Source of the DNA: a virus
Lineage: Duplodnaviria > Caudoviricetes
DNA: 47,548 bases
Virus record (IMG/VR): IMGVR_UViG_3300037790_000016
Location: 1 to 47,548 of that record
Strand: one strand, 5' to 3'
Shown one piece after another: positions 1 through 46,356 of this stretch; positions within the stretch are counted from its first letter, which is position 1, and each line of letters starts with the position of its first letter. Below the pieces are notes generated by a model that saw only the letters and a list, made by a program, of their open reading frames with translations, made no database searches and was not told the origin of the DNA. A program made the position numbers and the translations under genes.

Positions 1-127
1 CGAAAGAGGGGTTTTACTGTGCAGAAATTGTGCAGATTTAGAGTTAATTAGAGTGTTTTGGAGGTAGTCTGAAACCTCGCAAACCTTTGGGAGCGTTGAC
101 ATATATGAACGTTATTATTTTGGGCAC
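1..127. repeat. Exact 127-bp direct repeat, copy 1 (attP-like junction: phage right end + core joined to the int end)
   Basis: Identical to 46230-46356; sequences diverge after ...TTATTATTTTGGGCAC. Confidence 0.95.
16..39 (+). promoter_or_regulatory. Putative integrase arm-type binding sites (tandem TGTGCA repeats)
   Basis: ACTGTGCAGAAATTGTGCAGATTT matches 189-212 at 21/24 positions, on the other side of the crossover region. Confidence 0.7.
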
Positions 128-212: not shown

Positions 213-1166
213 TTTTTGATTTATGATAGTTTCGTTCAATTTTTGAGATTTTAGAGCTTCGAGATAATGCTTTTCCATTACCTTAATTGTATGCCCAAAT
301 ATTTGAGACGCTATATTCAGTTGCATACCACTTATAATATGAGAATTGATTGCATACTTACGAAAACTATGAAAAGCTACATTACGTCTTTTTGTATTTG
401 TTTTCTTTAATGCTTTATTCAGTTCCCATTTTAAAGAGTCGTAAGAACGGTTAGCAGGTTTTAAATATTTCCTCACCTCTGGGAATGCTTTTAATGGGAA
501 AATACGCTCTTTAGAACCCTTACCGTGAATTACTAAGTGGTCTTTTAGTATATCCTCTTCTTTAATAGATAATACTTCATTAATTCTCATTCCAGTAAGA
601 GTTATTAGTTTTACTACTCTGTAAAGCTCCCCACCTTCAATAGCATCTAATATAGCATCTACTTCGTTATCTGAGAGGAAGCCAGTTTTAACAGTAACTA
701 CTTTAGGAATAAGGGATTTTTTAATAGGGTTTTTATCTACGTATTCGTACTCAATACCAAATTCAAAAAAGTGGTGTACCGTACCAATATACATAGATAG
801 AGTGTTATTACTATAATGAGACTCGGATTTTACTTTTATAACATGTTCACGAATTGCGACACTATCTGAAAGAGTAAAGTTCTTAGTTAGGAATGTATTT
901 AAAGCCCGCAACACAGATTCTTTCCGTTTTGGTTTAAGCTTACTTATATATAGCTCTTCGTATAACTCTTTGAGGTCAGCTACGGTCTTATCTGAAGAGT
1001 AAAGCTGTCTATACCTATCTTCAGCAATTCTAAGAGCAAATTGTCGGTTTGCTTGTTTCCATTTCAGATTAGTTGACTTCCTATCTCCCTTAACAGATGT
1101 ATAGACCACACCGTTACGGTTATAGCAAAAGCAATGATTAAATAGTTTTGATTTCCACTTTTCCAT
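198..1166 (-). CDS. int: Tyrosine recombinase / phage integrase
   Basis: TGMRINE (R), HGKGSKER (K), FHSFRK (HxxR), FGHT (H), HY (Y); adjacent to att. Confidence 0.95.
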   Translation of the reverse strand: MEKWKSKLFNHCFCYNRNGVVYTSVKGDRKSTNLKWKQANRQFALRIAEDRYRQLYSSDKTVADLKELYEELYISKLKPKRKESVLRALNTFLTKNFTLSDSVAIREHVIKVKSESHYSNNTLSMYIGTVHHFFEFGIEYEYVDKNPIKKSLIPKVVTVKTGFLSDNEVDAILDAIEGGELYRVVKLITLTGMRINEVLSIKEEDILKDHLVIHGKGSKERIFPLKAFPEVRKYLKPANRSYDSLKWELNKALKKTNTKRRNVAFHSFRKYAINSHIISGMQLNIASQIFGHTIKVMEKHYLEALKSQKLNETIINQKKSAQ

Positions 1167-1169
1167 AAT

Positions 1170-1212
1170 AAAAAATAGAGGTGGCTAAGGTTTAGGGAAT
1201 ATAGCCACCTCT
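1170..1212 (-). terminator. Intrinsic terminator between cI and int
   Basis: Perfect 11-bp stem AGAGGTGGCTA (1177-1187) / TAGCCACCTCT (1202-1212) followed by a U-tract on the minus strand. Confidence 0.8.
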
Positions 1213-1232
1213 GGGAGTCCTCTTTGATTGCC

Positions 1233-1253
1233 AGTTACAATGGAGATAAAAGA
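1233..1253 (+). repeat. 21-bp sequence AGTTACAATGGAGATAAAAGA, repeated at 5339-5359; partial copies at 10245-10261 and 3738-3748
   Basis: Direct sequence identity. Confidence 0.9.
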
Positions 1254-1259
1254 GGTGTA

Positions 1260-2141
1260 TTATATCGTTTTGTTATAATAATAAGTAACGACTCCTACAA
1301 TTTTGCATTCATCGTCATAGTTTTCTTTTAATGGTAGTGTAAGACCGTCCGCTGAGTGTAACTCTATCTTCCCATCCTTTTCGATGTATTGCTTAACTAA
1401 AAGATTACCATTCAACATAGCAACTACAAAGTTACCAGATTTTGGTTCTAACTCTTTATTAAACACTACTATAGTTCCTTCGGTCATCCCATAATTGACC
1501 ATAGAATTACCAGATACTCTAATAGCTCCGAAGCTCTCAGCTTCGCCCTTAACTCCAGTCATTGTGTTTATCGTCCCATTTGCGTAATCCTCCAAATTTG
1601 GTATAACAGTTGATGTATTTGCGTAAGCTACTTGGTTATATAGCGTTACGGTAGCAAAAAAGTCTTTGAATTTCAAAACCTCTTTCACGTCTATTTCGCT
1701 GTGAGGTACATACTCCATCGACCCTGTACCATCTCTGTACCATTCTGGATTGAGACCGAGCTTTTTTAACAAGCTAATTTGTTCGTAGTTAGAGAATACC
1801 CTGTTTAAGTTCAAATATTGATTAAGGTTCTGAGTAGTCATACCCATAGCATCAGCGAACGCCTTTTGTGAGTTAAACTTAGACTCAATAAAACGTCTCA
1901 ACCTCATTTGAGGGGTTTCGCTTGCGTCCATTTCTCCAACGCCATTGAGGTACCAAGTTGTATTCAAACCAGCGTTTCGTAGTTGCTCTAACTTCTCTCG
2001 AGTTGAGAAAACAAATCCTTGGTTTAAGTATTTGTTTAACATTTGCGGAGAATTGCCTAATTTTCGCGCAAAAGCGGAATTACTTTTAAACCTTTGTTTT
2101 ATAAAGTGTTTAAGACGTTCCTGTGGTGTGTCGAGTGCCAT
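1260..2141 (-). CDS. cI: CI/LexA-like repressor: two tandem XRE-HTH domains + S24 peptidase (probable start 2141; ORF track extends to 2183)
   Basis: Two ~68-aa HTH repeats ending in GLNxxWY..G.G.M; S24 motifs VSGNSM and LLVKQY; divergent from the early operon. Confidence 0.9.
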   Translation of the reverse strand: MALDTPQERLKHFIKQRFKSNSAFARKLGNSPQMLNKYLNQGFVFSTREKLEQLRNAGLNTTWYLNGVGEMDASETPQMRLRRFIESKFNSQKAFADAMGMTTQNLNQYLNLNRVFSNYEQISLLKKLGLNPEWYRDGTGSMEYVPHSEIDVKEVLKFKDFFATVTLYNQVAYANTSTVIPNLEDYANGTINTMTGVKGEAESFGAIRVSGNSMVNYGMTEGTIVVFNKELEPKSGNFVVAMLNGNLLVKQYIEKDGKIELHSADGLTLPLKENYDDECKIVGVVTYYYNKTI

Positions 2142-2176
2142 AATGTTAAAATTTTCATCAAAAAGTTTATAAATAA

Positions 2177-2208
2177 TTTGCATATTTAAACCAGATTGTT
2201 TAAGTTGT
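2177..2208 (+). promoter_or_regulatory. Early rightward promoter (PR-like), FCB-type -33/-7
   Basis: TTTG-N20-TAAGTTGT; spacer overlaps the operator palindrome. Confidence 0.6.
2186..2203. promoter_or_regulatory. Operator O1, TTAAAC-N6-GTTTAA
   Basis: TTAAACCAGATTGTTTAA palindrome in the cI/early intergenic region. Confidence 0.75.
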
Positions 2209-43874: not shown

Positions 43875-44336
43875 TTACCAAGCATAGCCCCAAAGGGTTA
43901 AGTTCTTAGTATTGAAATAAGTGATTGTTTTTAGGTCTTCTCTGTACGTTATAGTAATATCTCCCTTTGTAAGCTCCCAGCCGTCTTCTACTTGTTGGTA
44001 AGCGTAACCATAATAGACGTTGTTATTTACAGGGTTTTTATTTATTCTAAAGTCCATATTTCCTATATAGTACCATTCGTCATCAGCACCTAAAACAAAG
44101 TCTGTATATGCTTTTATTTCGTGGTATTCAGTATGGCAACCGTTTTCAAAGACTGTATATGTAAACTCATTAGAATTATCTTTATTGGTTATGTAAGCAT
44201 CTCCAATAGTTGTTTGTGTTTTACCATAAAGACCACCCATTTCTATATTAATAACATCGGTTTTCAATTCGCTTGGTGTGTTTGATTGCTCACACGCTAC
44301 TAAAAATAGTAAGAATGGTATAAGTAAGTATTTCAT
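43875..44336 (-). CDS. Moron lipoprotein
   Basis: MKYLLIPFLLFLVA-C signal peptide with lipobox. Confidence 0.75.
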   Translation of the reverse strand: MKYLLIPFLLFLVACEQSNTPSELKTDVINIEMGGLYGKTQTTIGDAYITNKDNSNEFTYTVFENGCHTEYHEIKAYTDFVLGADDEWYYIGNMDFRINKNPVNNNVYYGYAYQQVEDGWELTKGDITITYREDLKTITYFNTKNLTLWGYAW

Positions 44337-44364
44337 ATCGTTTTTATAAATGTTAAACATAGTT

Positions 44365-44455
44365 CTAATTTAATCAATTCTTACCATATATACAAACGGA
44401 ATTCAGAAAAGTTTCAATAAATAATTTGTATATATAATTTTATTTATTAATTTTG
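44365..44455. promoter_or_regulatory. Divergent FCB-type promoters for the two moron membrane genes
   Basis: Minus: TTTG-N20-TAAATTAG (44396-44365); plus: TTTG-N19-TAATTTTG (44425-44455). Confidence 0.6.
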
Positions 44456-44537
44456 CATTACTCAATTAATATAACTCGACAATATTGATATGAGTAAGAA
44501 AACTCTTATATTGAGTTTTTTCATTACGGGAGTTAAT

Positions 44538-45047
44538 ATGAAACAAAGTAAAGACTATACCACGGCGTTTTATCTATCCATTTTCTTAGGTATTTGGGGT
44601 GTAGATAGATTTTACATAGGAAATATAGGTTTAGGTGTTTTGAAATTATTTACTGGTGGTGGTTTTTTAATATGGTGGATTGTAGATATATTTAAAATGC
44701 GAGATTTAAAGAATAAGCAAGAACACAATAAACGGGTTGCTGAGAAACTAGATTATATCAAATCAAATCCAAAACATAAAAGGTCTTTTGATTTAGCTGA
44801 GAAATATGGTACTGATACAGCGAGACGTATAATTAAGAAACAGCCTGTAGTGGGTGACCATAGGAGAATAATAACAGATATGTTTGATAGTGCTTTATAC
44901 GATATTTCCCACGTGCAAGGTGAAACCTACAATTACCGTTTTTACACTAAAGGTAAAACTGATGAATATGAAATGATAATAAGAATTGAAGACGATTATG
45001 TGACGGAGATAATAGATAAGAGAAAAAACAGGAAAAAACACAAATAA
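44538..45047 (+). CDS. TM2-domain membrane protein (moron)
   Basis: [39 protein letters not shown]; GGGAG RBS before 44538. Confidence 0.85.
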
Positions 45048-45048
45048 A

Positions 45049-45079
45049 TTTGCATTGTAATATATTTTTATTATATTGC
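45049..45079 (+). promoter_or_regulatory. Promoter for the antirepressor operon
   Basis: TTTG-N19-TATATTGC. Confidence 0.55.
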
Positions 45080-45135
45080 AAATGACCATTGCCTAGTTTC
45101 TAGGAAAATCGTTCTTAATACTATTGAAATAAATT

Positions 45136-45227
45136 AAACTTGGGTGAGCGACGCGGTGTAAGTCCGTCTTTCATATCTATACGGTTTTCCGTATTGGGTG
45201 ATGGTCAGCGACTCACCCTTTAAGTTT
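45136..45227 (+). ncRNA. c4-like antisense RNA candidate
   Basis: GGGTGAG/CTCACCC closing stem, two inner hairpins, and segment 45193-45207 complementary to 45083-45097 and 45255-45268. Confidence 0.7.
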
Positions 45228-45253
45228 TATTAATATAATATATAGGTGTAATT

Positions 45254-45490
45254 ATGACCATCACCAATCAAAGTGTAAACAACACACTAAAACAAGCTAC
45301 AGAGCAAAATGTTCTGGCTCAACTTACCGACTTGGCTAATGAAACGCCAACTTTACTTAACGATATATACTTCATATATCTAAAAGACTCAGACGCGTAC
45401 AAACAACTTAACGAAGTAGAAAAAGAGGATATTGACTATCTTTTTTGTTTACTTAATGACTCATTCTTAAAGCTTCAGGGGGTGTCGTAA
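45254..45490 (+). CDS. Small protein coupled to the antirepressor (icd-like position)
   Basis: AGGTG RBS; TAATG overlap with the next gene. Confidence 0.7.
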   Translation: MTITNQSVNNTLKQATEQNVLAQLTDLANETPTLLNDIYFIYLKDSDAYKQLNEVEKEDIDYLFCLLNDSFLKLQGVS

Positions 45491-46194
45491 TGGAATTAGT
45501 ATTTATGAATAACGATAGACCGATTACTACTTCACGTCTAATAGCTGAGAAGTTTGGTAAAAGACACCACCATATACTAAGAGATATACAAAATCTCGAA
45601 TGTCCTAAAGAATTTACTGAAACCAATTTTGGTTTGAGTGAATATAAAGACAGTACTGGTCGTAAGTTACCAGAATATCATATCACAAAAGACGGTTTCA
45701 CATTCTTAGTTATGGGTTTCACTGGTAAACAAGCGTCTAAATTCAAAGTAGAATATATAAACGCTTTTAACCAGATGGAAAAGCAACTCAAAGAGCCAAA
45801 AGAGCTGAGTAGATTAGAAGTAATACAATTAGCTCTGGAAAGTGAAAAGCAAAGGTTAAAACTTGAGAATAGAGTAAAGACCTTAGAGCCAAAAGCTAGA
45901 CTATATGATAAAGTTATGGACGATGGACGATTATACTCTATGAGTGAGGTAGCTAAGGTACTTAAAAACAAAGGCATTGGACGTAATAAACTATACCAAA
46001 AACTTAGAGAGTGGGGTTTGTTATTCAGTAATAAGAACGAACCGAAACAAGAATACGTTAATAGAGGGTACTTTGAAGTAAAATATACTTGGGTCGAGTC
46101 TTTAGAAATGAAAATCCCATCAGTTAAGGTTACCAACAAAGGACTCAAATACATAGAAGACAAATTAAATTCAGATATTGCATTCTTACAGTAA
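45490..46194 (+). CDS. rha: Rha-family regulator fused to an ANT/KilAC antirepressor domain
   Basis: TTSRLIAEKFGKRHHHILRDI, TKDGFTFLVMGFTG..A..FK..YI.AF; GRNKL...LR, P.QEY..RGYF, VT.KG. Confidence 0.92.
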   Translation: MELVFMNNDRPITTSRLIAEKFGKRHHHILRDIQNLECPKEFTETNFGLSEYKDSTGRKLPEYHITKDGFTFLVMGFTGKQASKFKVEYINAFNQMEKQLKEPKELSRLEVIQLALESEKQRLKLENRVKTLEPKARLYDKVMDDGRLYSMSEVAKVLKNKGIGRNKLYQKLREWGLLFSNKNEPKQEYVNRGYFEVKYTWVESLEMKIPSVKVTNKGLKYIEDKLNSDIAFLQ

Positions 46195-46221: not shown

Positions 46222-46244
46222 AAGCCCCTCGAAAGAGGGGTTTT
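46222..46244 (+). terminator. Terminator at the prophage right end
   Basis: AAGCCCCTC-GAAA-GAGGGGTTTT. Confidence 0.75.
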
Positions 46245-46356
46245 ACTGTGCAGAAATTGTGCAGATTTAGAGTTAATTAGAGTGTTTTGGAGGTAGTCTG
46301 AAACCTCGCAAACCTTTGGGAGCGTTGACATATATGAACGTTATTATTTTGGGCAC
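46230..46356. repeat. Exact 127-bp repeat, copy 2 (attR-like junction)
   Basis: Identical to 1-127, then continues into a host gene. Confidence 0.95.

Follow-up and report, generated by a model that had tools for sequence, protein, structure and literature searches.

The window analysed here, a single viral contig of 47.5 kb taken in its whole length (IMGVR_UViG_3300037790_000016), carries a lambda-like prophage gene set in which an integrase and a CI-type repressor are accompanied by replication, terminase, head and tail genes. The final module, at the right end of the prophage and separated from cI by about 43 kb of the contig, comprises a leader with a predicted structured RNA, a small ORF and a Rha-ANT gene (Table 1). 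The coupling of the last two, predicted originally from the sequence, is borne out by the overlap of their stop and start codons. The Rha-ANT protein is a putative antirepressor by its family label. The small ORF matches nothing in Pfam, PHROG or NCBIfam and belongs to a rare family, with six credible relatives in seven matches at the 50% level among 1.8 billion representatives. Its structural model is a soluble helical hairpin (pLDDT 85) with no fold match at E<=0.001; matches in the Atlas score 0.85 or less and serve as leads only. None of these searches (Pfam, PHROGs, NCBIfam, fold) relates it to Icd or Kil.

Table 1. Features of the RNA/rha-ant module and of the surrounding phage, in window coordinates
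Feature	Position	Strand	Basis or remark
Integrase	198-1166	minus	
CI-type repressor, HTH and S24 domains	1260..2183	minus	domain matches; candidate antirepressor target
Promoter-like boxes, TTTGCA-17 nt-TATATT	45049..45077	+	promoter scan; -35 box, spacing and TAnnnT kept in L171
Upstream target a1 (site A, likely decoy)	45083..45097	+	15/15 pairs with the antisense segment
Upstream target b1 (second box)	45103..45112	+	10/10 pairs with 45181-45190
Predicted 77-nt antisense RNA	45142..45218	+	outer stem, two hairpins, single-stranded address; no Rfam match
Hairpin 1, T-loop-type 7-nt loop (GG-UGYAAGU-CC)	45153..45167	+	10/11 letters same in L171
Hairpin 2; 5' arm and loop hold antisense box b' (45181-45190)	45179..45194	+	covariation with L171
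Antisense address a'	45193..45207	+	pairs with sites A and B
Shine-Dalgarno-like AGGTG, 5 nt before AUG	45244..45248	+	same sequence and spacing in L171
Downstream target a2 (site B), covering the small-ORF AUG and codons 2-5	45255..45268	+	pairing with a'
78-aa small ORF, Icd position	45254..45490	+	stop overlaps next start (TAATG)
Rha-ANT (KilAC) protein, 234 aa	45490..46194	+	PF09669 E 1e-33; PF03374 E 1.5e-21; phrog_63; TIGR02681
GC-rich terminator-like hairpin after the operon	46225..46240	+	minus-strand score; on plus, four T lie 3' of it
127-nt repeat of window 1-127	46230..46356		phage-host junction; host-like sequence from 46350

The two identical copies of the terminal repeat differ in their continuations, one running into the integrase end and the other into host DNA, which suggests that excised and integrated forms of the phage were both present in the sample. 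An ArsC-like host gene has the junction within its 5' end and gains a new in-frame start from the phage sequence (46316). Over the host flank, identity with a genome labelled Chlorobiota bacterium is 92.6%, and further close matches bear the labels Ignavibacteriae or Bacteroidota; the Chlorobiota-labelled genome would fall in the same GTDB phylum as a Fulvivirga genome, Bacteroidota. Between cI and the integrase, on the minus strand (1171-1212), an 11-pair hairpin is followed by a T-rich run, and a 7-nt copy of one of its arms lies about 40 nt upstream; this element could be a terminator whose alternative pairing sets integrase expression. Directly upstream of the RNA module (43875-45047) are moron-like genes, namely a lipoprotein-like ORF on the minus strand and a TM2-domain membrane protein (PF05154). 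In phage P1 the sim gene adjoins immI, and by analogy these genes are possible superinfection-exclusion cargo.

The promoter originally proposed for the leader matches the consensus at 9 of 12 positions in an AT-rich region (14 promoter-like matches found, 9.3 expected); its support comes from the homologous locus L171 described below, in which the boxes are conserved. Transcription would start at about 45083-45085, which would place site A at the 5' end of the transcript. The promoter region (45048-45083) is also a long imperfect palindrome, in which promoter-like boxes on the minus strand were reported as well, and it could be a site of Rha-ANT autoregulation or a divergent promoter. Two perfect TTAAAC-N6-GTTTAA palindromes (at 2186 and 2239, within 2186-2256), situated between cI and a 59-aa ORF in the Cro position (2283-2462), are likely CI operators. 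Exact copies occur only at these two positions, so the leader promoter is probably not CI-controlled, unlike that of P1; none of the 11 matches with at most two mismatches falls within 45040-45100, and the best operator match at the leader promoter is no better than those in shuffled sequence.

The core of the original prediction was a three-way complementarity, in which one segment of the leader could pair both with a site A upstream and with a site B over the start codon of the small ORF. All three segments were confirmed at the positions given in Table 1, as were both duplexes, that with site A having exactly four G-U pairs among its 15 and that with site B consisting of 11 of 11 pairs, a single bulged G and three further pairs. 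The 11-nt core of site B and its complement occur once each in the window. When 45049-45290 was dinucleotide-shuffled 5000 times, four shuffles yielded an exact 7-nt/11-nt triple of this kind; among 782 real 242-nt tiles one did, lying elsewhere (about 1085-1326, minus strand), with tile boundaries that by chance cut through the rha-ant leader locus itself. When the 83 ORF starts of the window were ranked by the ability of a segment to pair both upstream and over the AUG, the small ORF came first, with a two-sided score of -20.8 kcal/mol against -12.8 for the runner-up. The duplex of site B with a 30-nt antisense stretch has an energy of -22.3 kcal/mol (shuffled mean -12.1, sd 2.7), and site B lies outside the top 12 genome-wide tiles for pairing with that stretch. 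A second upstream box, b1, was absent from the first reading of the sequence; together a1 and b1 form 25 pairs with an energy of -34.2 kcal/mol, against a shuffled mean of -11.9 (sd 2.8). To judge by these sequences, the upstream arrangement is the two-box layout of P1 C4. In both phages a1 and b1 are clear, and downstream only the a box is strong, the additional pairs being scattered; no good b box was found 3' of site B.

The segment that carries the address is predicted to form a compact scaffold. Its outer stem (45142-45150 with 45209-45218) has 7+2 pairs around a bulged A45211, and it encloses the two hairpins and the address. The stem and hairpins anticipated by the original prediction are present in the centroid fold, whereas the single minimum free energy structure is a different rod, 0.8 kcal/mol below the three-way form; despite this rod, comparison with the homologue supports the three-way fold. 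The 11-mer of the L171 hairpin 1 recurs, letter for letter, as the T arm of a phage tRNA that Rfam recognises. In the modelled structure the features that distinguish the RNA from C4 are its short bulged outer stem, its long single-stranded address and its T-loop-type hairpin.

L171, the sole full homologue found, was retrieved by a relaxed pattern search and belongs to a provirus of 62 kb that is classed as complete. The provirus encodes an integrase and a CI of its own, has the module at a different place in its genome, and shares 25-36% identity with window proteins outside Rha (47%). The two leaders align over about 250 nt, in which the promoter pattern TTTGCA-17-TAnnnT, the outer stem, the T-loop-type hairpin and the AGGTG before the AUG are all kept. 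The small ORF is homologous (36% identity) and overlaps a Rha gene through ATGA; because this gene encodes Rha only, with no ANT (KilAC) domain, 'antirepressor' and 'secondary immunity' stay inferred for the system as a whole.

With the register of the pairs fixed by the conserved 3' anchor, 13 of the 29 long-range pairs are changed on both sides between the window and L171, and one is broken. For the core of the address with site B, all 10 pairs are kept, five through changes on both sides, and sliding B by 1-2 nt broke 8-10 of the 10. The core with site A retains eight of nine pairs (four changed on both sides, one broken), and b' with b1 retains 10 of 10 (four both-sided, two one-sided). 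Within the scaffold, the hairpin 2 stem shows both-sided changes at three of five pairs, its sixth pair being unpaired in L171, and all 13 pairs of the outer stem and hairpin 1 are retained, three of them through both-sided changes; with two sequences, the shuffle control for the internal stems (72/500) cannot tell this retention from chance. Covariation, by which the original prediction was to be judged, is thus found, in one full homologue and in fragments. Identity between the two leaders is concentrated in the scaffold parts (9/11, 10/11 and 15/18) and is low in the linker and address (4/15 and 13/25). Each RNA forms strong calculated duplexes with its own targets (-33.7 and -21.8 kcal/mol for the window, -31.2 and -26.4 for L171), against -7.4 to -14.8 kcal/mol for cross-target duplexes; on these modelled energies the two addresses are orthogonal alleles with weak cross-pairing.

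Fragmentary relatives came from DNA contigs of four of 23 runs, none of the 23 being an RNA run. The first contig covers 45048-46206 and differs at 147 letters; the differences listed for it include insertions of C after 45094 and of A after 45196, two letters that would pair in the A duplex. Another keeps both flanks, while 45079-45283 is replaced by 213 unlike letters. A third fits 45140-45196 with seven differences and then runs on into another address and a 3' stem strand of the L171 type. These fragments, partial as they are, agree with address switching on a fixed scaffold.

Wider searches of sampled contigs and genomes added no further full homologue. Scans of viral contigs with leader patterns gave 0/7, 1/3, 1/31, 1/62 and 1/47 matching stretches, the sole match always being the L171 contig, and scans of viral stretches for the small ORF gave 0/27 and 1/108, the latter again L171. 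A lone metagenome match to the small ORF was spurious, lying inside a dCMP-deaminase-like gene. GenBank phages held no meaningful DNA match and no match to the small ORF, and Rha-ANT searches of sampled genomes yielded 0/5 and 1/254, the one match being weak. The small-ORF profile matched three of 401 sampled genomes, one of these being real, with the leader absent; a weak profile match in the L237 group was discarded because it sits inside a gene on the opposite strand. The real match, in a host-lineage genome (L272, 661-1973), is a decayed prophage copy in which a helicase is fused to the second half of the small ORF, the leader is gone and a remnant of the Rha gene persists without the Rha domain. 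An RNA model built from the two sequences gave two weak matches in 151 sampled genomes, neither with the scaffold, and a second search gave 0/151. The leader of the rha-ant genes in Bacteroides phage BF344P1 has no such three-way pairing. In a high-GC viral contig (L180, about 115-205) a GC-rich structured element has a similar T-loop motif and a closing stem; 10 nt upstream of the element are complementary to its second hairpin, and no rha lies downstream; it matched neither Rfam nor the two-sequence model. A literature search, which left most subscription papers outside its reach, found no description of this RNA or of a C4-like RNA in this lineage.

Neither the window RNA nor the L171 RNA matches any of 4227 Rfam families at the gathering score, nor any family of the C4 clan at E<=10, nor C4, c4-2 or c4-a1b1 in direct searches, consistent with the initial failure to recognise sequence similarity to C4. 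The relevant thresholds are 45 bits for C4 (RF01695) and 41 bits for c4-2 (RF02944). As controls, 16 enterobacterial-type rha loci returned 13 C4 matches (68-83 bits) and 13 isrK matches, the Rha genes of these enterobacterial prophages lying behind isrK and C4; the two-sequence model matched none of the control C4 loci. Matches to miRNA and snoRNA families in Rfam at E 0.05-10 were set aside as reflecting the hairpin of a' with B or chance.

The closest functional parallel is the immI region of P1 and P7 (C4, a1/b1, a2/b2, icd, ant1/2), described in PMC8198154 and PMC6906374. Both loci have a promoter, a1 and b1, a structured RNA, a downstream target at the start of a small ORF and a coupled gene of an antirepressor family; both RNAs, the present one by prediction, are about 77 nt long with allele-specific pairing, and in both one antisense box belongs to hairpin 2 and the other to the stretch that joins this hairpin to the outer stem. 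The P1/P7 RNA differs in having a 17-pair outer stem and a tetraloop in hairpin 1, in place of the nine pairs and T-loop-type hairpin seen here, where the address is a 15-nt single strand, b2 is weak and the C4 model finds no match at E<=10. The small ORF is moreover unrelated to Icd, and no CI operator-like site lies at the promoter. Of the P1 immI-type logic originally proposed, the order of elements, the pairing and the Rha/ANT coupling stand. According to PMC2864571, C4 is listed for Proteobacteria and phages; the present host lies outside the Proteobacteria. P4 CI RNA, as presented in PMC4825925, likewise resides within its own target transcript, with complementary sites (seqA, seqC) upstream and downstream. 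CI and C4 are RNase P substrates said in PMC5499578 to lack an equivalent of the T-loop, in contrast to the T-loop-type hairpin of this RNA.

Other systems share less. In Gifsy-1, isrK (RF01394)/c4-a1b1 (RF03163) presents a 77-nt isrK fold, whereas here the predicted 5' end is a nearly unstructured 30-nt two-box site, and neither RNA gave an isrK or c4-a1b1 match. The immI region of P22 comprises arc, mnt, ant and the sar antisense RNA, which is made from the opposite strand; like the present module it is a separate antirepressor module far from cI. It differs in that the antisense segment here is part of its own target transcript and the module contains no gene for a small repressor. The c4-2 RNA, of the same clan as C4 and regarded in PMC5737381 as probably a remote homologue of an RNA already known, shares the three-way junction, two hairpins and a similar length, with a consensus UAU/UAA internal loop and GAAA loop that are both absent here. 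A Fulvivirga (Bacteroidota) genome (L365, 1501-1582, minus strand) contains a sub-threshold c4-2 RNA (38.1 bits), recovered as a control for the c4-2 model; downstream of it come an ORF of 78 aa and a pair of genes resembling, by eye, an addiction module. Taken together, the locus likely works like P1 immI and P4 CI and is not a member of the C4 family; remote common ancestry with C4 may exist, since the topology is shared.

We favour, with a probability of about 0.72, the reading that the locus encodes an antisense RNA switch akin to P1 C4 and P4 CI, address-coded and built on its own scaffold, acting in trans and gating the small ORF and the coupled rha-ant gene of a temperate phage. In P1, a1/b1 act as a decoy, and Rho termination operates in immI. 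Equilibrium folding run from the predicted transcription start gave, in both phages, a probability of 0.96-1.0 for the decoy pairing until site B was transcribed and of 0.98 for the pairing of a' with B thereafter. In a new transcript the address would accordingly be predicted to pair first with the 5' decoy (a1 and b1, 25 pairs), leaving the AUG open, and if this duplex were kinetically trapped an incoming phage would translate the operon and make Rha-ANT. By the precedent of P1 and P4, a stable 77-nt RNA would be excised from the leader and accumulate in the lysogen, where it would bind a1/b1 or a2 of new transcripts in trans and cover the AUG; translation of the small ORF, and with it that of the coupled rha-ant gene, would stop. 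The untranslated, C-rich message may then be exposed to Rho, ending the transcript; the C/G ratio of the small ORF, 1.34 in both phages and second among the 70 plus-strand ORFs, fits Rho loading weakly. A phage entering with that address would be silenced and one with another address would escape, giving heteroimmunity, a property treated for C4 in PMC12197685.

The leader could also work in cis only, as a folding switch or timer in which the decoy pairing formed during transcription relaxes to the pairing that covers the AUG, with no trans-acting RNA and no part in immunity. Folding predicts the two cis states for each phage, site B is just 47 nt from the address, and since the closed state is favoured at equilibrium by only 3.5 kcal/mol in the window and 0.7 kcal/mol in L171, a cis-only switch fits these energies as well. 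In the proposed mature RNA, freeing the 9-nt address core would cost 4.4 and 1.4 kcal/mol. Yet the outer stem and the T-loop hairpin are the most conserved parts of the leader, and the outer stem is absent from the two cis states (P<=0.03), a pattern that speaks for a distinct mature RNA; divergence of the address together with orthogonality is also better explained by recognition in trans. We regard the cis-only account as unlikely, if the most serious competitor.

A different payload, rather than a different switch, is at issue if the RNA mainly restrains a toxic small protein by Kil/Icd-like or type I toxin-antitoxin logic, with Rha as a passenger or a general transcription regulator and not an antirepressor. 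The direct target of the RNA is, after all, the AUG of the small ORF, which is conserved alongside the RNA while the C-terminus of its Rha partner differs, and Icd blocks cell division in P1 (PMC8198154). The small ORF is nevertheless coupled to the Rha gene by overlapping codons in both loci, and its model is a soluble helical hairpin that matches no known fold; we consider this account distinctly improbable, and it would leave the RNA switch intact. Least probable is that the matches have no function and were left behind when an AT-rich spacer underwent local inverted duplication or template switching. Inverted copying would create such matches at once, and only two full loci are to hand, but each of the two addresses, different as they are, fits a pair of targets in one shared register with G-U pairs kept, the a1-b1 spacer differs between the phages, and the change of address rewrites codons 2-4 of a conserved ORF.

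To return to the antisense switch that we prefer, its mechanism is already known from P1 and P4; the scaffold appears to be new and to have been missed by Rfam. A bolder proposal, possible although we would sooner bet against it, is that the RNA represents an independently evolved immunity family on the Chlorobi/Ignavibacteria side of Bacteroidota, which would have reached C4 logic by convergence, with a T-loop driving tRNA-like processing or folding and a swappable address setting superinfection groups among otherwise unrelated prophages. A T-loop in this class of RNA would bear both on processing and on whether the design has had more than one origin. Because nature provides two orthogonal alleles, action in trans and heteroimmunity would be directly testable by cross-reporter assays, and such allele pairs could serve as orthogonal RNA regulators. 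The catalogued C4-type immunity RNAs have been described from Proteobacteria; on the reading preferred here, the same control logic would extend to prophages of a little-studied lineage.
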